64,000 bases of DNA from Acidimicrobiales bacterium. Its GTDB lineage: Bacteria; Actinomycetota; Acidimicrobiia; Acidimicrobiales; Aldehydirespiratoraceae. The notes under the pieces are model-generated. The model was given only the letters and a program-made list of their open reading frames with translations. It was not told where the DNA came from and made no database searches. The translations under genes and the position numbers were made by a program. Shown here in pieces: positions 9,405-64,000 of this stretch. Where the stretch lies: contig JAKMFW010000100.1 of NCBI GenBank assembly GCA_022425325.1, positions 1-64,000 of the forward strand. The letters are read 5' to 3'. The first letter of the stretch is position 1; each line of letters begins with the position of its first letter.

Positions 9405-11165
9405 ATGCACGTTCATTTTGCCCGTACGAGCCTGGCGAGGCTGCTCGCCCTGCTGTTGGCCTTCGTGATGATCGCTGCGGCCTGTGGCGGGAGCGACGAC
9501 AGCGATGACAACGCTGCCGACACGCCGTCGGACAGCGACACCGGTAGCGACGAGTCGTCCGATGACGACGCTGGCGACGGCGACTCGGTCGTGCCGACCA
9601 TCACTGCGCCGGAAGAGGAGGAGGTTGCCGAGGAAGAGATCCAGCGCGGCGGCGTCCTTCGGGTCGCAATGGAGGCCGATGGCGACGGCATCAACCCGGT
9701 CGCCAACAACTTCGCGAACTCCGCCTACCTGATGGGCCAGTCGATCTTCGATCCGCTGTTCACGCTCGACCAGGACGGCAACTGGTTCCCGTATCTGGCG
9801 GAGTCCGCGAGCCCAGTTGAGGGCACGAGCTCGTGGCAGATCACGCTGCGTCAGGGGGTCACGTACCACGACGGTTCGGAGATGACCGCTGACGACATGA
9901 TTGCGGCGTTTGAGGCGCAGCTTGCCGATCCGATCATCTCGCTTGCGGTGGCTCCGTCGTTCCCGGCGGAGAACCGTGTTGAGCGGATCGATGACTACAC
10001 GGTGCAGTACAACCTGCTGCGCCCGTCGGCTCACTTCCCGACCAACCTGACCAGCCAGCTCGGCATGGTCCCGTCGGCAAGCTACATCGCCGCGGCGGCT
10101 GAGGATCCGACGATGGACCAGATGCCGATCGGGCAGGGTCCGTTCAAGATCGTCAGCCGCACCCAAGACGACAAGACCGTCGTCGAGCGCAACGAGGACT
10201 ACTGGCAGGGCACCGACAACATCTACCTCGACGGCATCGAATTCCTGCCGATCACCGACGCCGCGATCGCTGCCGAGCGTGTGGCCGCAGGAGACATTGA
10301 TCTCGTCGTGACGTCGAGTGCCGACGCAATCTTGACGCTGCGTGACGCCGAAGGTGTGAGCACCATCGAGAACGTCTACTCATCAGAGAACGACATCATG
10401 ATGAACACTCGGGCTGCGCCGTTCGACGATATCCGGGTGCGTCAGGCGCTGACCTACGCAACGGACCGTGAACGCCTCTCTTCGCTGATCAACCAGGGCA
10501 CGTCGCCGTTGGCCGACTCGATGTTCCACCCGGACCTCATCTGGAACAACCCTGACGTGGTTCAGGAGGGCAACATGCCTGAGCTGGCCGGCCCCCTGGT
10601 CGAGTCCTACTGCGCGGACGTGCCGGACAACTGCACCGACGGCAAGATCGACATGGAGCTCCAGTACTCGGGCCCGTCGGTGACTCAGACCCGTATCGCC
10701 GACATCCTCACTGCTGGTTGGGAGCCGTTCTTCAACGTCACTGAGCAGGAGTTGTTGCAGGACTCCCACATCCTTGAAGTCGCAATCGGCCAGTTCCAGG
10801 TCGTGACGTGGCGCCAGTTCGGTGCGGTCGAGCCTGACAACGAGGTTGTGTGGCTTGAGTGCGCCACCGCTGAGGGCTTCATCACGCTCAACTGGGTGCG
10901 TTGGTGCAGCCCGGAGCGCGATGAGTTGCTCTACGCCCAGCGCGCCACCGACGATCTCGACGCCCGCGTCGAGATGTGGCGTGAGATCCAGGCGGAGATG
11001 AACGAGTCCTACGCGTACATCTTCACCACCCACGCCAACTGGACCATCGGCTTCGGTGACCAGGTAAACAACCTGTGCGGACAGACCGGCCCAGGTGGAG
11101 AGACCCTGTTCTGTAACAACCAGGGACGGATGTTCTTCCACAACGTCTGGCTCGGCGAGGGCTGA
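9405..11165 (+). CDS. ABC transporter substrate-binding lipoprotein, family 5 (peptide/nickel, DppA/OppA-like)
   Basis: A signal peptide with a lipobox (IAAACGG) is followed by an acidic Ser/Asp-rich linker and then an SBP family 5 fold. I placed the start at MHVHFARTS (ATG at 9405). Confidence 0.8.
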   Translation: MHVHFARTSLARLLALLLAFVMIAAACGGSDDSDDNAADTPSDSDTGSDESSDDDAGDGDSVVPTITAPEEEEVAEEEIQRGGVLRVAMEADGDGINPVANNFANSAYLMGQSIFDPLFTLDQDGNWFPYLAESASPVEGTSSWQITLRQGVTYHDGSEMTADDMIAAFEAQLADPIISLAVAPSFPAENRVERIDDYTVQYNLLRPSAHFPTNLTSQLGMVPSASYIAAAAEDPTMDQMPIGQGPFKIVSRTQDDKTVVERNEDYWQGTDNIYLDGIEFLPITDAAIAAERVAAGDIDLVVTSSADAILTLRDAEGVSTIENVYSSENDIMMNTRAAPFDDIRVRQALTYATDRERLSSLINQGTSPLADSMFHPDLIWNNPDVVQEGNMPELAGPLVESYCADVPDNCTDGKIDMELQYSGPSVTQTRIADILTAGWEPFFNVTEQELLQDSHILEVAIGQFQVVTWRQFGAVEPDNEVVWLECATAEGFITLNWVRWCSPERDELLYAQRATDDLDARVEMWREIQAEMNESYAYIFTTHANWTIGFGDQVNNLCGQTGPGGETLFCNNQGRMFFHNVWLGEG

Positions 11166-25857: not shown

Positions 25858-27006
25858 TCAGGTGGTGAGTTGGTGCTGTTCGGGTGGTGAAGCGGCCCGG
25901 TAGGGCTGTCTTCTTCGGCGTCGCCGGGGGTCGCCTCGGTTGCCACGATGGGCGTGACCGTGGCAGGTGTGGCAGAGGAGTTCGAGGTTGGGGAGGTCGG
26001 TGCCGCCACCGTCGAGCCATTCGTGGAGGTGGTGGGCTTGGCAGCGGTCGATGGTGGCGCCGCAGCGGTTGCAGCCTCGGGTAGCGACGATCAAGGCACG
26101 CCACTGGGCTTCGGTGGCGAGCCGCTTCCGACGTCCTTGCCAGAGGGTGTGTCCGGCGCCGTCGAAGAGGTGCCCGATGACGTCGGCTGAGGGTCCGAGT
26201 TGCATGAGGACGGAGTCGGGGAGGGGTGTGCCGTCGAGCCAGGTGGCTGCTGGTTCGTCAAGGTTCCAGACGATGTGGACTTGATGCTTGGGGTGTACCG
26301 GGCCGTCCGTTGACTCTTCGCAGATCAACTCGGCCAAGGCATCGGCCCGGCGTTGGGAATGTGTGCGCACATCGTCGGGGGAGCCGTTGCGGCCGCCGTC
26401 GTCGTGCCACATGTGGTCGGTGCGTCGTCGCCACGCGGCGAGGACCTGTTCGCCGGTGGCGTTGTCGAATCGTGCGTGGATCTCGACCGAGCCGTCGCCA
26501 TGGGTCGTGTGCCAGCCCGCTCGACGGGCTCGCTGCTTCGCGTGGCGTTCTTCGGCCTCGGCCGCCGACGTGTGCTTGCCCACGAACTCGCGAGCCTTAC
26601 GTGCGAACAGATCGGCCGGCATCGCCTCGGCCGTCTTCACCAACGCCTGTGCGATCTCGGGCGTCACGTGTTCGGCCGCGTCGGCGATGATCGCCGCGTG
26701 CTCAACGTTGAGCCGCCCCTCGGCCAGCGATTCGGCCAAGGCCGGCATCTCGGCCAGCCCTCGAGCGGTGACCATGTCCTTCTTCGCTTGCCGCTCCGAG
26801 CGCCGCCCGACCGAACGGCCCACGACAGCCGAGTCGGCGCCGGCATCGCCGAGCGAATCGAGTGCGGCCTTGGCGGCCATCAACCGCTCGTCAACCCGGG
26901 ACCGGACCCGTTCGAGATCCGAGATCAGGCTGTACAGCTCGCGGCGCGACAGCGGCCGAGGATCGATCCCCTTCAACCCTTCGTGCACGCTCGCCAACTC
27001 GACCAC
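25858..27006 (-). mobile_element. HNH endonuclease with a DUF222 domain (REP13E12-like mobile gene)
   Basis: A DUF222-like N-terminal region is followed by a C-terminal HNH motif (CNRCGATIDRCQAHHLHEWLDGGGTDLPNLELLCHTCHGHAH). The gene lies between murA and the nfu-like gene on the opposite strand. Confidence 0.75.
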
Positions 27007-27586: not shown

Positions 27587-30157
27587 TCAGGCGTGAGCGG
27601 CGAGATGCAGCGCGTTCGAGATCAGCCCGAGGTGGGAGTACGCCTGCGGGTGGTTGCCGAGCGCCCGCCCGGTGGCCGGGTCGACCTCTTCGGTGATCAG
27701 GCCGGTCGGTCCGGCGAGATCGACGTAGGCCCGGAAGAGCTCGCGAGCCGAGCCGAGGTCGCCGATCTGTACCTTGGCGTCGATCAGCCATGAGGTCATG
27801 AGGTTGAAGCCGCCCTCTTCGCCGGGCAGGCCGTCCTCGTGCTTGTAGCGATAGACGGTGTCGCCGGAGCGCAGCGACGACTCGACGGCGTGGACGGTTG
27901 CGATGTAGTGGGGATCATCGTGTTCGAGCATGCCGAACAAGCCGATGGCGAGGACTGAGGCATCGATATCGGTGCCGTCGTAGGCCGTGGTGAACGAGCC
28001 GACCTCGTCGTTCCAGCCGTTGGCGATGATGTCGTCCTTGATCGCTTCGCGGAGGTTGACCCACTCGGGCCGTTCGCGGCCGAACACCTCTCCCGCGATC
28101 TGGACGGCCCGGTCGACGGTGACCCAGCACATGACCTTGGAGTTCACGTGATGGCGCGGCGCGGACCGCACCTCCCAGATGCCCTGATCGGGCTCCGTCC
28201 AGCGTTGCTCGACGGCGGCGACAAGATCTTCGACGAGGCGCCAGTGGCGCGCCGACAGCGGGGCATCGATCTCGCCGAGTTGATGGATGAGCTCGAGTAC
28301 TGGGCCGAAGACGTCGAGCTGGACCTGGTGGTCGGCGGCGTTGCCGACCCGCACCGGACGTGAGCCGGCGTAGCCCGGCAGCTCCTCGATGGTGGCCTCG
28401 GGTGGCAGCGCTGTGCCGTTGACGGTGTAGAGCGGCGAGAGGCGCTCAGGGCCGACCTCGGAGGCCTCGATGACCCGGAGGAGCCAGTCGAGGAGATCCA
28501 TCGCCTCGTCGATCGAGCCGAGTTTCACGAGAGCGCCGGCCGAGAGCGAGGCGTCGCGGATCCAGCAGTAGCGGTAGTCCCAGTTGCGGACGCCGCCGAT
28601 GAACTCGGGAAGGCTTGTCGTGGCCGCAGCGAGGATGGCGCCGGTCGGGCCATAGCAGAGGGCCTTCAGAGTCAGCGCCGAGCGGCGGATGAGATCGTGA
28701 TCGACGTCGACGAGGGTCTCGGGCAGTTCGAGACGGGCGGCCCAGTCGGACCAGAACGAGTGGGTCGCCGCACGACGGTCGACCTCGATCGTGCGATCCG
28801 GACGCAGTGACGCCGTGCCGCAGCGGAGTTCGAGCGTGACAGGACCGGCGCTGAGGTCGACCTCGGCGATCGCAGTCTGGTGCACACCGGCGTGCTCAAG
28901 GGTCCACTCAATGCCGGGGGAGCGGAGCACGACGAGGTCGGCCGCATTCGTGATCTCGAGGCCGCCGTCGCGGCGTTCGAGCTGGGTCGGAAAGCGGCCG
29001 AAGTCGAGGCGGGGCGCGAACTCGATGCGAGCGGTGCCGGTGCCCTCGATCACCCGGATCAGGTCGGTGCGGCCTGCGATGCGCTTCGGGCGCCCTTCGG
29101 AGCAGTCGAGATAGTCGGTGACGCTCATCGACGGCCACGACGTGCGAAGGATGAGTGAATCGCCGACATAGGCCTGGGACGGCGTCCCGATCGCCGCATC
29201 GTCGGCGGGACCGATCGAGAAGTGGCCGGCTGCAGGCCCGCCGAGGAGTTCGGCGAAGATCGCACCGGAGTCGATGCGGGGAACGCACAGCCAGGTGATG
29301 CGAGCATCGGGGGTGACGATCGCTGCAGTGCGTTGATCCGAGAGCATCGAGTGCTCATCGATGGGCGTGACGCCGGCACCGGCGAGCCAGTCAGCCCGCC
29401 GGGCGGACAGCGCAGCGAGGAGGATGGCCACCTCCTCGGGTGAGTCGACCCGGAATGGGGCGGCCGTCTCCCCCTCGCCGACCTTTACGCCGACATCGGG
29501 ACCGTGGAGTGTGCGGAATGCGTCCTCGTCGGTGACATCGTCGCCAAGGAAGAGCACGGCGGTGGCGCCTACGGTGGCGCGCACGGTGTTGAGCGCCTTG
29601 CCCTTGTCGGTTGGAACGAGCAGCAGCTCGCAGACCTTCTTGCCGTGACGGATGTCGAGCTGCCCGATCGTGAGGTGGATCCGCTCGATCTCGGCGACGG
29701 CCTTCTCGCTCTCGTCATCGCCGAGCGCGCGGTAGTGAATGGCGACCGACGCTGGTTTCTTCTCGAGCGAGAGCTTGGGATGGTCGGCGACGAGTTGGCC
29801 AAGGGCGTCAAGGAGCTTCGATCGGCGTTCCTGAAGTGCCGGATCGAGGTCGAGCGCGAAATCGATGTCGAACTCGCTCCCGTGGGAGCCGACGAGGTGG
29901 ATCTCGGCCGGGAGGCGGCTGAGCGCAGCGAGGTCCCGCAGCGAGCGGCCGGAGATCACGGCGACGTCGGTCTGGGCCAGTGCAGCAAGTCCTCGCAGCG
30001 CCACCGATGTCTCGCGAAGAGGCAGTGCGGCCATCGGGTCGTCGACGAGGGGCGCGATCGTGCCGTCGTAGTCGCAGGCGATCAGCAGGTGAGGTGCGGC
30101 GGCGAGCGCATGGATGCGAGCGTCGACTTCGGGGTCGTCGAGGAGATGACTGGCCAT
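27587..30157 (-). CDS. Bifunctional protein: trehalose-6-phosphate phosphatase (HAD, OtsB-like) fused to a glycoside hydrolase family 15 (glucoamylase/trehalase-like) domain
   Basis: The N-terminal HAD motifs (DYDGTIAP ... GDDVTDE) are followed by a GH15 (alpha/alpha)6 barrel region (WDYRYCWIRDAS...). I placed the start at MASHLLDD (cat at 30155-30157). Confidence 0.8.
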   Translation of the reverse strand: MASHLLDDPEVDARIHALAAAPHLLIACDYDGTIAPLVDDPMAALPLRETSVALRGLAALAQTDVAVISGRSLRDLAALSRLPAEIHLVGSHGSEFDIDFALDLDPALQERRSKLLDALGQLVADHPKLSLEKKPASVAIHYRALGDDESEKAVAEIERIHLTIGQLDIRHGKKVCELLLVPTDKGKALNTVRATVGATAVLFLGDDVTDEDAFRTLHGPDVGVKVGEGETAAPFRVDSPEEVAILLAALSARRADWLAGAGVTPIDEHSMLSDQRTAAIVTPDARITWLCVPRIDSGAIFAELLGGPAAGHFSIGPADDAAIGTPSQAYVGDSLILRTSWPSMSVTDYLDCSEGRPKRIAGRTDLIRVIEGTGTARIEFAPRLDFGRFPTQLERRDGGLEITNAADLVVLRSPGIEWTLEHAGVHQTAIAEVDLSAGPVTLELRCGTASLRPDRTIEVDRRAATHSFWSDWAARLELPETLVDVDHDLIRRSALTLKALCYGPTGAILAAATTSLPEFIGGVRNWDYRYCWIRDASLSAGALVKLGSIDEAMDLLDWLLRVIEASEVGPERLSPLYTVNGTALPPEATIEELPGYAGSRPVRVGNAADHQVQLDVFGPVLELIHQLGEIDAPLSARHWRLVEDLVAAVEQRWTEPDQGIWEVRSAPRHHVNSKVMCWVTVDRAVQIAGEVFGRERPEWVNLREAIKDDIIANGWNDEVGSFTTAYDGTDIDASVLAIGLFGMLEHDDPHYIATVHAVESSLRSGDTVYRYKHEDGLPGEEGGFNLMTSWLIDAKVQIGDLGSARELFRAYVDLAGPTGLITEEVDPATGRALGNHPQAYSHLGLISNALHLAAHA

Positions 30158-30222
30158 GGGCGCCGACGCTACTCCGACGGGCGACGAAGGCTGCACCGAT
30201 TCGGGGAACTACGGTCAGCTTC

Positions 30223-59785: not shown

Positions 59786-60243
59786 GCGACGGCCTCGATC
59801 ATGAACAGGGCGAGCACCCCTCGGATGGTCCAGCCGATGGTGCGGATCCAGTTCGTGTGCACGAGCCGGTCGGCGACAATGGGATTCCATCCGTGTTCGA
59901 GCCGCCCGTGGGCGGGTACTTGGAGGGTGATGGTCGACAGGTGGACGCCTGCGAGCACCAGCCCGGCGATGAGGGGCAGGGTGCGGGTCAGACCGTCGGG
60001 CGGGGCGAAAAAGAGCCACAGGGTGGCGACGCCTTCGACGAGCATCGCCGGACCGACGACGAGGGAGATGAGGCGGGTGTGGGCCGCCTCGTACGCAACG
60101 AAACCGTCCTCGCCGACCCGGGCGAACAATGGGTAGTGGACGACCTGGATGATCCAGATCAGCCCGACGAGAAACCAGGTCGCCGCGGCGTGGACAAGGG
60201 TGACGGTCACCTCTTCATGGTCGACCGGATCGTCGAGCGTCAA
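59782..60243 (-). CDS. Hypothetical small integral membrane protein coupled between the Mo-oxidoreductase and the photolyase
   Basis: It is about 150 aa with 4 TM helices. A candidate TTG start at 60243 overlaps the oxidoreductase TGA (TTGA), and a GTG at 60210 is the alternative. Its stop overlaps the photolyase GTG. Confidence 0.45.
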   Translation of the reverse strand: MTLDDPVDHEEVTVTLVHAAATWFLVGLIWIIQVVHYPLFARVGEDGFVAYEAAHTRLISLVVGPAMLVEGVATLWLFFAPPDGLTRTLPLIAGLVLAGVHLSTITLQVPAHGRLEHGWNPIVADRLVHTNWIRTIGWTIRGVLALFMIEAVA

Positions 60244-62243
60244 ACAACCTCGATGTGCACCCACGTGTCGTGGAATGCTGCCGATCCCGTGTCGTCGTCG
60301 GGTACGGCTGGGTTGGTGAGCGCGTTGACCGCCCGCCCCTCTGGAGTCGACGAATGCCCCCAACCGAACGGTAGTGCGACGAGGCCGGGCTGGACCCGGT
60401 CGCTGACGGTGGCTTCAACGGTAAGTGAGCCGCGCTCGTTGTGGACCCGAACACGCCCGCCGTCGGTCACACCGAGCGCCGATGCATCGATCGGATGAAC
60501 CTCGAGCCGAGGATGGGGCGGCGTTGGCAGGTGTGCGGGGAACTGTGCGTAATTCGCGTTGAGGAAGGCGACGTGTTGCTTCAGGCTGATCAGCTGGAAC
60601 GGCGCCTCGGGTTCGGCGATGTCGATGTCGAGTGGACCAAGCGTGAAGGTGGTGTCGGCATGGGGGCGCGTGCCGGGGTCGATCGCGAACCGGGCCCAGC
60701 CATCATCGACGAGCCGTTCCCACGTGATGCCGTCGAGCATCGGGTGCTCGTTCTCCAGCAGGCCACGGATCAGGTCCTCGTCGGACTCGTGGTGCTCGGG
60801 GGCGTCGAGACCGAGTTCGGTGGCGAGCAGTCGGAAGATCTCGTTGTTGGGTTTGGCCTCGCCCATCGGGGCAATCGCCGGTCGGTTGAGCGCGACGTTG
60901 AGATGGCCCCATGCCGGCGCAAGATCGAGATGCTCGATCTGGGTGGTCGCAGGAAGGACGAGGTCGGCGTGACGAGCGGTGTCGGTCAGGAACTGCTCCG
61001 CCACGACCGTGAAGAGATTCTCGCGGCGGAGACCCTCGATGATGCGGTTCTGATCGGGAGCGATGACCGCCGGGTTGCTGTTGTGGACGAACAAGGCCTC
61101 GATCGGTGGATCGATCGTGGGGTCGGTGAGCACCTCGCCGAGGCGGGCCATATTGAAGCTTCGAGCGGGTGGCGCGAGCCGGGCTTCCTCGGTGTCGAGG
61201 CCGAAAGCTTCCTCCCACCAGACCTGGGTCGAACGGGCGAGCCCGCCACCCGCATCCCGCCAGGCCCCGGTCACGGTCGGCAACATGGCGATCGCACGCA
61301 TGATCTCGCGACCGTTGCCCCGATGTTCGGGGCCGACGAGTGAGCGGACGGCCGCCGGCCTGACGTTGGCGAACCGATGGGCCACGGCAACGACCTCGTC
61401 AGCGGGGATACCGGTGCGTGCCTCGGTGGTCAGGGGTGTCGCATCCGCGACGGATACCAGAAGGTCGGTGGCATCGGTGGTGTGTTCGGCGAGCCAGGTC
61501 GGGTCGAGCAGGCCGTCGCGATCCATCACGTGGATCAGTCCGGCGACGAGGGCGACGTCGGAGCCCGGCCGTAACTGCAAGAAGCGATCGGCTCGCTCGG
61601 CTGTCGCCGTGCGCACCGGATCAACGACGATCACCTCGGCGCCGGCCTCGCGGGCTTGTTCGATCGTCGTCCAGAGGTGCCGGTTGGTCACAAAGGTGTT
61701 GGTGCCCCACAAGATCACCGTGCGAGCAAGATGGAGGTCTTCCGGGTCGATGCCGCGGGGTGTGCCGAGGACGTCGGCGGCTCCGAGCCAGGCGGTCACG
61801 CCGCAGAGATGTCGCCGCACATCGGAGGTGCCGAGGGCAGCGAAGAAGCGGCGAGCGAGGATGCCTTTCTGAATGACACCCTGCGTGCCGTCGAAGGAGT
61901 AGGGAAGGATCGCCGCCGGGCCCGACTGGGCGATGATCGAACGGAAGCGCTCACCGATCTCGGCGACGGCGTCGTCCCAGGTGACCGGTGTGAACTCGCC
62001 GGAACCCTTCGGTCCGGTTCGTCTCAGCGGCGTGAGGATCCGGTCGGGGTGATGTACTCGATCAAGGAAGCGGTTGACCTTGGGGCACAACTGGCCCTTG
62101 GTGGTGGGGTGGTCGGCGAGTCCACGAAGGGCAACGGCTCGACCGTCCTCCACGGTGACCTCCCACACGCACGTGTCGGGGCAGTCGTGATGACACGCGC
62201 CGCGGACGACTCCTGCTCGCACCGGGCCAACGGAGCGTTTCAC
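60240..62243 (-). CDS. Molybdopterin (MopB-superfamily) oxidoreductase with an N-terminal [4Fe-4S] motif
   Basis: The CHHDCPDTC (Cx2Cx3C) N-terminal cluster motif is followed by MGD-binding domains. It is about 667 aa, and the start (a GTG at 62243 or 62222) is uncertain. Confidence 0.8.
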   Translation of the reverse strand: MKRSVGPVRAGVVRGACHHDCPDTCVWEVTVEDGRAVALRGLADHPTTKGQLCPKVNRFLDRVHHPDRILTPLRRTGPKGSGEFTPVTWDDAVAEIGERFRSIIAQSGPAAILPYSFDGTQGVIQKGILARRFFAALGTSDVRRHLCGVTAWLGAADVLGTPRGIDPEDLHLARTVILWGTNTFVTNRHLWTTIEQAREAGAEVIVVDPVRTATAERADRFLQLRPGSDVALVAGLIHVMDRDGLLDPTWLAEHTTDATDLLVSVADATPLTTEARTGIPADEVVAVAHRFANVRPAAVRSLVGPEHRGNGREIMRAIAMLPTVTGAWRDAGGGLARSTQVWWEEAFGLDTEEARLAPPARSFNMARLGEVLTDPTIDPPIEALFVHNSNPAVIAPDQNRIIEGLRRENLFTVVAEQFLTDTARHADLVLPATTQIEHLDLAPAWGHLNVALNRPAIAPMGEAKPNNEIFRLLATELGLDAPEHHESDEDLIRGLLENEHPMLDGITWERLVDDGWARFAIDPGTRPHADTTFTLGPLDIDIAEPEAPFQLISLKQHVAFLNANYAQFPAHLPTPPHPRLEVHPIDASALGVTDGGRVRVHNERGSLTVEATVSDRVQPGLVALPFGWGHSSTPEGRAVNALTNPAVPDDDTGSAAFHDTWVHIEVV

Positions 62244-62259
62244 CGCGCGACCGGCCGAC

Positions 62260-63000
62260 TCAAGACGCCGGGTCCATGAGGCGGAATGCCTCGCCGAGTC
62301 CGACACCACCAGTTCGCCCGTGGGTGCGGGCCTCGCGTTCAGTTCGCTCACGGAACGCGGCTGCCTGGGTGCCATCGTCGTCGGCAGCGATCACCATCGT
62401 CGTCTCGAACTGGCTCTCGTGAGCGAGCAGCGCATCCACCTTGGCGTCGACATGTCGCTGCTCGATGCGCTCGACATGATCGGGCTCCTCACACTCGAAC
62501 AGAAGAAGGGCTCGTGGACGGTGGTGGTTCAGGCCGTCGGCCATGTGCTCGCGGTGGTAGTGCGGATCACGGGCGGCAACCACGGCATCGACGGTGAGGA
62601 AACCGGCGTTGCGATGGTCGGGGTGCATGCGCCACCGGCGCCAGGGGTCGTGGCCGAGCACGATGTCGGGGGTGGTCTCACGGATCACCCGGGCGACCCG
62701 CCCCCGCAGCTCGACCGTGTTGGCGAGTTCGCCGTCGACTTCGCCGAGGAAGTGCACCTGGGCGTCGGGGTGGATACGACGGGCGGCCTCTCGTTGTTCG
62801 GCCTGCCGGCGAGCGATGAGGACGTCGGTGTCGGCATCGACATCCCACGTTCCTTTGGACCCGTCAGTGCAGATCAGGAGATGGATCGCAGCGCCGGCGG
62901 CGCCCCACTTGGCAAGGGTGCCGCCGCACTCGAACTCGATGTCGTCGGGATGGGCACCAACCGCAAGCGCGCTGGTCGGCACGGGCAGATCGACACGCAT
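62260..63000 (-). CDS. PIG-L/LmbE-family N-acetylglucosaminyl deacetylase-like protein
   Basis: It has the metal-binding motif AHPDDIE near the N-terminus and an HxxH region. Confidence 0.75.
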   Translation of the reverse strand: MRVDLPVPTSALAVGAHPDDIEFECGGTLAKWGAAGAAIHLLICTDGSKGTWDVDADTDVLIARRQAEQREAARRIHPDAQVHFLGEVDGELANTVELRGRVARVIRETTPDIVLGHDPWRRWRMHPDHRNAGFLTVDAVVAARDPHYHREHMADGLNHHRPRALLLFECEEPDHVERIEQRHVDAKVDALLAHESQFETTMVIAADDDGTQAAAFRERTEREARTHGRTGGVGLGEAFRLMDPAS

Positions 63001-63002
63001 CG

Positions 63003-63581
63003 TCAGGATCCTTCCACCTGGAGGCGGGCAAGGTCGCCGGGATCGTCGACGTCGAGTGCAAGCGAGGGGTCGTCGACGACGGTGATCTCGAGTCCGAGGC
63101 GCTCAGCCTCGGCACAGTGGGCGGCGAACGAACCGGGCCCGTAGTGGAATTCGAAGCCCAACCCGAGCGGGATCGACAACACATTGCTGCCGTCGCGCGC
63201 GTGGTCGGGCGCAATGGCGAGGCCGGGTCCGTCGACCACTCGAAGGTCGTCGGCGAGCGGCAGGTCGGCGTGGGCGACGATCACCCGGCTCGGCGGATCG
63301 TCCTCGGTGGCGACAAGAGCGATGGCCGCGTCAATACTTTCGTTGAGTCCGTTGACGGCGGGGGCGAGCCCGTTGGCGCCCAGACGCTCGGCCCAGCGGA
63401 GCACGTCGGCGTCGTCGCTCACGACGTGCACCGGAAGATCTCGTGCTGCTCGGACGACCCGTTCCGCCATCGCCATTGCAAGGCGCCGACGATCGGTGGG
63501 GGACAACACGCCGGCGAGGCGAGTCTTGGCGTCGTCGAACGACCGGAGCGGGATCAGCACGGCGGCGTCGGTGGCGACCAC
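63003..63581 (-). CDS. fbiD: 2-phospho-L-lactate/phosphoenolpyruvate guanylyltransferase (CofC/FbiD, F420 biosynthesis)
   Basis: The N-terminus AVLIPLRSFDDAKTRLAGVLS matches the CofC/FbiD family. It lies divergent from the gpsA-like remnant, as in mycobacterial gene order. Confidence 0.65.
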   Translation of the reverse strand: MVATDAAVLIPLRSFDDAKTRLAGVLSPTDRRRLAMAMAERVVRAARDLPVHVVSDDADVLRWAERLGANGLAPAVNGLNESIDAAIALVATEDDPPSRVIVAHADLPLADDLRVVDGPGLAIAPDHARDGSNVLSIPLGLGFEFHYGPGSFAAHCAEAERLGLEITVVDDPSLALDVDDPGDLARLQVEGS

Positions 63582-63603
63582 GGCGCGAGTCTAGGGTGGG
63601 GCC

Positions 63604-63822
63604 ATGTCCATGCGTGTGGCCGTCGTCGGCGCCGGATCATGGGGCACCACGGTCGCCCATCTGGCTCGTAACTCGATCGTGTGCAAGCTGGCCGAGGCCA
63701 ACGGCGTGTACACGCCGATCGCCGACCAGATGCAGGCATGCGTCGAAGAGGGTCGCACCGCCCTCGAGGCCTATGCCGGTCTCGTCAACACCCCTGCCGC
63801 CCGAGAGATCGATCCCCACTAG
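63604..63822 (+). pseudogene. gpsA: gpsA remnant: glycerol-3-phosphate dehydrogenase N-terminus fused in-frame to its C-terminal helices, with about 250 central codons missing
   Basis: The 72-aa ORF has MSMRVAVVGAGSWGTTVAHLARNS, the GpsA Rossmann N-terminus. This is joined directly to VCKLAEANGVYTPIADQMQACVEEGRTALEAYAGLV, which resembles the GpsA C-terminal segment. Confidence 0.45.
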
Positions 63823-63850
63823 GGCGCTCGAAAGGACGACGAACAAACCC

Positions 63851-64000
63851 ATGGGACTCCTCGACCGCCTCCGGCGCCGGAACCTCACGCCACTCGACCC
63901 GTCGTTCGGCGCCCTGATCGGCGACCTCGCCGGGCCGATCGCCCGCATCGCCCCCGACGGCGCCGTCGCCACCCTCGACGGATCGTGGCGTCTCGAATGG
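63851..64000 (+). CDS. Partial ORF of unknown function; the 5' end is in the window and it runs off the 3' edge
   Basis: It begins with ATG at 63851 (MGLLDRLRRRNLTPLDPSFGALIGDLAGPIARIAPDG...), has GC3-rich codons, and has no stop before the window end. Confidence 0.3.
   Translation, partial: MGLLDRLRRRNLTPLDPSFGALIGDLAGPIARIAPDGAVATLDGSWRLEW

Follow-up and report, generated by a model that had tools for sequence, protein, structure and literature searches.

A 72-codon open reading frame (ORF) near the end of the window, the whole 64,000-nucleotide stretch analyzed here from a marine Acidimicrobiales bacterium, is very probably a genuine loss-of-function deletion allele of gpsA. The allele would have diversified and recombined between genomic backgrounds, its product being a neutral peptide and its two ends persisting for other jobs. 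Three points make the case of interest: the gene hit is a core lipid-precursor gene, the null allele is common and appears to have recombined across backgrounds, and the remnant stays open while its sequence drifts.

The ORF runs from ATG to TAG (Table 1) and its product is identical to a GenBank hypothetical protein, MCH1452640.1, from an Acidimicrobiales MAG. In NCBIfam, residues 2-22 of this product align to positions 2-22 of the GpsA profile, and residues 24-69 align to positions 291-336 of the 341 positions of PRK12439 (E = 5.7e-10). The PRK12439 score is 39.1 bits, far below the whole-protein cut-off of 436. The Pfam scan retrieves positions 2-19 of the 158-position PF01210 model alone (19.6 bits, under the 23.1-bit cut-off) and detects no PF07479 in the 72-aa product; the intact allele at a related locus, L011, matches PF01210 from position 2 to 156 and shows both PF01210 and PF07479 complete. 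When the window was searched by tblastn with a relative's 333-aa GpsA, matches arose solely at query residues 1-20 (E = 1.6e-5) and 286-332 (E = 4.5e-18). Judged from these profile and protein matches, the GpsA likeness of the two termini is no chance resemblance.

On the left of the remnant, 22 nt away and on the other strand, lies a gene for CofC/FbiD (TIGR03552, 133.8 bits against a cut-off of 105), after which comes a PIG-L-family deacetylase. On the right, the remnant leads into a conserved gene, and no terminator-like site was found between the two in an E. coli-type scan of positions 63300-64000. The remnant occupies the orthologous slot between cofC and this 503-aa gene, and its kept ends are 95-98% identical in DNA to the corresponding parts of L011. 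By orthologous position and colinear sequence, the remnant is a gpsA allele by descent.

Table 1. Coordinates of the gpsA remnant, its parts and its immediate surroundings in the window
Feature	Coordinates	Strand	Basis or remark
gpsA remnant ORF	63604..63822	+	ORF, NCBIfam, tblastn, GenBank product
Codons 1-20 = GpsA residues 1-20 (strand beta-1, GxGxxG loop)	63604..63663	+	DNA 97-98% identical to intact allele
Deletion junction, codons 21-24 (A-R-N-S)	63664..63675	+	Alignment
Codons 25-72 = GpsA residues 286-333 (C-terminal helices)	63676..63819	+	Centre neutral, last 21 nt invariant
cofC/fbiD (2-phospho-L-lactate guanylyltransferase), divergent neighbour	63003..63581	-	TIGR03552
Spacer to downstream gene, 28 nt	63823..63850	+	One variable site among alleles; length constant in every allele
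Downstream conserved gene, 5' end	63851..64000	+	503 aa on other contigs, no Pfam family, then rnhB
TAGGGT, -10-like box (TANNNT type) of gpsA	63592..63597	+	Ends 6 nt before ATG; putative promoter element
TAGACT, -10-like box of cofC	63588..63593	-	Ends 6 nt before GTG; overlapping, divergent; putative promoter element

Related loci were sampled via the CofC neighbour, independently of the state of gpsA. At two of them, L011 and L012, where CofC is 97% identical to that of the window, the same slot holds a full 333-codon gpsA, and the window flanks are 96-98% identical to theirs. Identity to L011 is 97.8% over window positions 62245-63662 and 96.3% over positions 63674-64000. In the DNA alignment, 794 nt of L011 correspond to 11 nt in the window, a net in-frame loss of 783 nt or 261 codons. 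Parsed for best fit, the junction links full-length codons 1-20 and 22-24 to codons 285-333, with codon 21 lost and a Pro-to-Ser change at the joint; a natural variant, P0014, retains N-P-I-V at this position. A two-segment fit leaves a breakpoint ambiguity of at most 4 nt and reveals no repeat flanking the missing segment. A CGATC pentamer found on both sides was considered as a possible junction microhomology; it would need extra steps and was rejected, so that no mechanism can be called.

To locate the deleted motifs, we aligned the intact allele with 1z82, a solved GpsA structure from Thermotoga. With residues 25-284, almost the whole of PF01210, the greater part of PF07479 and the LAKG, GALKN, GMGDLLAT and SRNR segments are gone; from established structural knowledge of GPDH, we take these segments to form the active site. 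The predicted product has neither a complete Rossmann domain nor a C-terminal substrate-binding domain with its Lys, Asp, Thr and Arg motifs, and because every catalytic motif is deleted it cannot be a glycerol-3-phosphate dehydrogenase. An earlier note on this DNA had proposed that the gene divergent from fbiD encodes only 72 aa and fuses the N-terminus of GpsA to its C-terminus. Both points are borne out, the first by the ORF itself and its TIGR03552 neighbour, the second by NCBIfam, tblastn and alignment to full-length GpsA, which place the likeness in codons 1-20 and 24-72; the match of the C-terminal half, on which the note had made its proposal depend, stands. The same note assumed an in-frame deletion of about 250 codons that removed the catalytic domain. 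The deletion is indeed internal and in frame, but its size relative to L011 is larger than proposed; the catalytic domain is gone and, beyond that, so is most of the Rossmann domain, as both the L011 alignment and Pfam indicate.

The short allele, hereafter the mini allele, is widespread. The exact mini ORF is found on 13 contigs, from at least 10 samples and three assembly sources that used different assemblers. A protein search returned 37 clusters of mini variants, comprising about 210 distinct sequences of 54-97% identity, nearly all 72 aa long. These come from marine metagenomes, including Tara Oceans. Two GTDB species representatives carry the mini allele, L091 (Acidimicrobiaceae NAT108) and L093 (ERR599092_bin.96); a close GTDB representative, L092 (NP57), is intact, with a GpsA 95% identical to that of L011. 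The remaining 77 representative loci returned match full-length GpsA, a few of them being truncated at a contig edge or fragmented, and the next clade out (CofC about 60% identical) shows the same synteny with a 333-aa GpsA. In-group CofC proteins all fall in one cluster, and a look-up of the exact CofC gave three contigs, all three with the 72-aa neighbour. The comparison with close relatives suggested by the earlier note has, with L011, L012 and L092 intact, found the deletion not to be private to the window genome.

Four candidate frameshifted or truncated alleles were rejected as artefacts. P0033 and P0036 are contig-edge truncations, the contig of P0036 beginning in adapter sequence; P0030 has an adapter-like tail (LLYTSDAADEV), as judged on its protein sequence alone; and P0031 is a 100-aa ORF on a chimeric-looking contig of 621 nt, L182. 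Over its length (positions 1-621), L182 runs along the mini gene for some 145 nt before turning into unrelated sequence with a low-GC tail, and may represent a chimera or an insertion. Untrimmed adapters are present in public assemblies at the gpsA locus: positions 1-16 of contig L186, whose end lies inside the mini gene, correspond to the Nextera adapter TGTGTATAAGAGACAG. In the NAT108 assembly (L091, positions 10001-10219, PABW01000106.1), N is found exactly at the sites that are polymorphic among mini alleles, indicating a mixed-strain consensus. Among the full-length proteins, the intact-GpsA cluster (P0038) includes a 498-aa member, P0294, and the search with intact GpsA returned a 446-aa homolog, P0043; either may be a fusion or have a mis-called start.

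The two ends of the remnant behave differently from its centre. We call mini-specific any change that is absent from all five intact alleles. Such changes are missing from ORF nucleotides 1-34 (Poisson P = 0.001), a stretch that is invariant among all mini alleles, and from nucleotides 196-216 (P = 0.014); both intergenic spacers around the remnant are nearly invariant as well. The spacer on the cofC side contains two overlapping -10-like boxes, one for each direction (Table 1), that we found by eye and through their conservation; an E. coli-type promoter scan of positions 63300-64000 returned nothing. Acidimicrobiia loci with GpsA identity as low as 55% retain the TAGGGT-type box at its spacing. 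Leaderless promoters of actinobacteria have this layout, with a TANNNT box whose end lies about 6-7 nt ahead of the start codon. The overlapping divergent boxes suggest that gpsA and cofC may both be leaderless. If these promoter assignments are right, the -35 region of cofC would fall inside the first codons of the remnant, which would explain the frozen nucleotides.

The reading frame also appears to be kept. Three independent secondary deletions, of 42 nt (L016/L093), 45 nt (L181) and 78 nt (L180), are all multiples of three and leave the original start, stop and 28-nt spacer in place; this in-frame bias rests on three events, and most alleles come from a protein search that favours open frames. 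Nonsense mutations are absent from mini alleles, an absence that is not significant (P ~0.3). A frameshift in the remnant would lead either into a frame with no stop up to the window end or into one that stops at 63915, and both overrun the start of the downstream gene at 63851. Translation of the remnant, rather than its sequence, may be what is maintained for expression of the downstream operon, a reading for which we regard the case as nearly balanced.

These observations fit into the following scheme. One internal deletion would have removed codons 25-284 of a 333-codon gpsA, joining the first 24 or so codons in frame to the last 49. The mini allele would be old enough to have diversified, and homologous recombination would have carried it between genomic backgrounds. 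At its 5' end the remnant would persist as the start and promoter region shared back-to-back by gpsA and cofC, and at its 3' end as the sequence leading into the 503-aa gene and rnhB. With less certainty, the remnant may be transcribed and translated as a leaderless first cistron, in which case its open frame could stop ribosomes from overrunning or uncoupling the downstream start.

GpsA makes glycerol-3-phosphate (G3P), the backbone of bacterial phospholipids. When gpsA is knocked out, E. coli, B. subtilis and S. aureus become auxotrophic for glycerol or G3P (PMC3840577). As a corollary of the deletion, it is reasonable to suppose that another enzyme or route would supply G3P in carriers of the mini allele, as the earlier note had also supposed. 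No second gpsA was found by tblastn in the 64-kb window, nor were glpK, glpD, ugp or glpT found by Pfam among the approximately 40 of its ORFs that were scanned, and the homolog search with intact GpsA listed orthologues only. The housekeeping genes of the window include ligA, gatCA, ilvBNC, aroA and mnmA. Elsewhere in the window, an 869-aa ORF at 27587-30196 on the minus strand combines Trehalose_PPase, TREH_N trehalase-like and GH15 domains, and is adjoined by a gene with DUF222 and HNH endonuclease domains (25858-27006, minus strand). A different reading of the G3P question, which we think unlikely, is that the null allele was favoured and spread by homologous recombination across diverged lineages, abandoning de novo G3P synthesis being profitable for carriers able to scavenge G3P, glycerol or glycerophosphodiesters in a Black-Queen-type dependence, and that the remnant serves solely as a translated, sequence-neutral leaderless spacer ORF that keeps the downstream operon expressed.

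Mini alleles and the intact alleles of L011, L012 and L092 coexist in a marine Acidimicrobiales species complex whose members are 90-98% identical, and flank identity to the window type does not track the state of gpsA. Flanks are 97-98% identical to the window type at L011, which is intact; 92-97% at L013, L014, L015 and L091, which carry the mini allele; 91-96% at L016 and L093, which carry a 58-codon mini allele; and 91-95% at L092, which is again intact. Over the last 150 nt of the gene, 7-8 sites separate window-type mini alleles from intact L011 but 15-23 separate them from other mini alleles, which are similar to intact L092.

Neither in the flanks nor in the C-terminal segment, then, are the mini alleles monophyletic with respect to intact ones, as would be expected had the same deletion arisen independently several times in different backgrounds, at a deletion hotspot. 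We nevertheless consider such recurrence very unlikely. All 72-codon mini alleles share junction features that both intact alleles lack, namely the loss of codon 21, GCT for GCC and TCG at the joint; no repeat or hairpin is present that could direct a repeated event; and L015 is a visible recombinant, a mosaic in which a window-type mini segment (98.7% identical) sits inside flanks that are 90-95% identical. The 58-codon allele of L016 and L093 keeps the left part of the junction, the joint codon having been removed by its 42-nt deletion. Given the shared junction features, the simplest reading would be that the deletion happened once and that homologous recombination then took place between mini and intact haplotypes. 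Private or derived changes amount to 3-9 per mini allele over 207 nt (1.4-4.3%). Compared with L011, the window type has a flank dS of 0.06; compared with more diverged loci, the value is mostly 0.16-0.28. Dated by these figures, the deletion appears to be younger than the split of the backgrounds and to have crossed between them.

A second deletion polymorphism lies 1.3 kb from the gpsA deletion, at window positions 60284-62244, and involves a gene for a 637-aa molybdopterin oxidoreductase (60240..62153, minus strand). The gene is present in the window, in L001, L002 and L013, and in the outgroups L095, L096 and L122; it is replaced by about 41 nt, with about 44 nt of its 3' end left, in L011, L012, L014, L015, L016, L091, L092, L093 and L171. 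The two deletion polymorphisms do not sort together.

Selection on the peptide was assessed in ten distinct mini alleles. Their pairwise Nei-Gojobori dN/dS is 0.31, a value that could be read as purifying selection. This reading was dropped after we separated variants shared with intact alleles from mini-specific ones: the pairwise value is confounded because mini alleles have much of their variation in common with intact alleles, where it built up under selection. Mini-specific changes number 27 non-synonymous and 8 synonymous, a ratio of 3.4 against a neutral site ratio of about 2.9. Over the same segments, changes private to two close intact alleles number 0 non-synonymous and 7 synonymous (Fisher p = 2.4e-4 versus mini-specific changes); over the whole intact gene, L011 and L092 differ by 17 non-synonymous and 49 synonymous changes (Fisher p = 8e-7 versus mini-specific changes). 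Of the mini-specific changes listed, 18 non-synonymous and 7 synonymous ones are private to a single allele. For the neutral reading to hold, recombination or common ancestry must account for the variants that mini and intact alleles have in common; were every one of these a fresh mutation in the mini alleles, omega would come to about 0.5. Omega is 0.07-0.11 for intact gpsA and 0.04-0.24 for the flanking genes, leaving out rnhB pairs with no non-synonymous change and L091, in which polymorphic sites are masked by N.

The nature of the replacements and the predicted structure can be set beside these counts. Mini-specific replacements include Leu to Pro, Tyr to Ser or Cys, Cys to Arg and changes within GxGxxG. 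AlphaFold2, run on the 72-aa product with a 20-sequence alignment, gave a mean pLDDT of 51 and a pTM of 0.28, with values below 50 in the former beta-1 strand and glycine loop. The 72-aa peptide is a neutral remnant, neither a mini-enzyme nor a selected small protein. The locus combines the disabling 783-nt net deletion and the relaxed selection of a pseudogene, and shows neither the purifying selection on sequence nor the foldable product of a functional small ORF.

We regard as highly improbable the view that selection maintains the product as a small protein in a novel role, for example a regulator or binding partner derived from the C-terminal helices of GpsA. The ORF is open in every allele examined, with start and stop kept and all indels in frame, and the pairwise dN/dS and the nearly invariant N- and C-terminal residues would also agree with such a role. 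However, the mini-specific changes are neutral in their counts, radical in kind and extend to GxGxxG; 14, 15 or 26 central or C-terminal codons are dispensable; AlphaFold proposes no confident fold; and the two invariant ends, in which synonymous sites are frozen too, overlap the putative promoter and start region and the stretch leading to the downstream gene.

An assembly collapse, in which a full-length gpsA exists in the real genome and some 780 nt were skipped by the assembler, can be dismissed: contigs L186 and L187 break inside the mini gene and the MAG consensus of L091 has N at polymorphic sites, both signs of strain heterogeneity at the locus, but the same junction recurs in 13 contigs from separate samples and assemblers, with records in JGI, ENA, Logan and NCBI, no collapsible repeat surrounds the missing segment, and mini alleles bear substitutions and further deletions of their own that are absent from all intact alleles. 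Of the two options that the earlier note had left standing, collapse and genuine decay, the first is contradicted by these contigs, by the 37 clusters of variants and by the lack of a junction repeat, and the second is sustained by the diverged mini variants, their neutral substitutions and their secondary deletions.

A null allele of gpsA that is common, long-lived and exchanged would imply either a redundant source of G3P in the group or a part of the population that relies on glycerol or G3P from outside. Both possibilities matter for attempts to cultivate this abundant, uncultured marine actinobacterial group and for metabolic models of it built from MAGs. The locus also holds a lesson for annotation: an open 72-codon ORF entered as a 'hypothetical protein' can turn out to be a neutral remnant, its ends being retained on regulatory grounds, and pairwise dN/dS can mislead while a defunct allele goes on recombining with a functional one.

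Compared with GpsA itself, the remnant has the same locus, putative promoter, start and stop, and its residues 1-20 and 25-72 are colinear with residues 1-20 and 286-333 of the full-length protein. It differs in that 261 of 333 codons are gone, that its scores lie far under the family cut-offs and that its peptide is free of purifying selection. Bartonella is a documented case of gpsA loss in nature (Zhu et al. 2014, PMC4159011). As in Bartonella and in laboratory gpsA knockouts, a normally core phospholipid-precursor gene is lost here, and dependence on another source of G3P is expected. In contrast to the host-associated Bartonella, the host in our case is a free-living marine planktonic actinobacterium; moreover, the loss segregates with the intact gene and leaves an open, perhaps translated remnant.

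Deletion-type structural variants are known to segregate within marine bacterial populations, including Acidimicrobiales (PMC12379486). The presence/absence polymorphism of gpsA, like that of the molybdopterin oxidoreductase gene, resembles these variants in being intraspecific and made by deletion. The gpsA deletion differs from them in lying, in frame, inside a housekeeping gene, and in that the allele appears to have crossed between diverged backgrounds. We place the remnant among pseudogene remnants and among the structural variants of deletion type already reported from marine populations.
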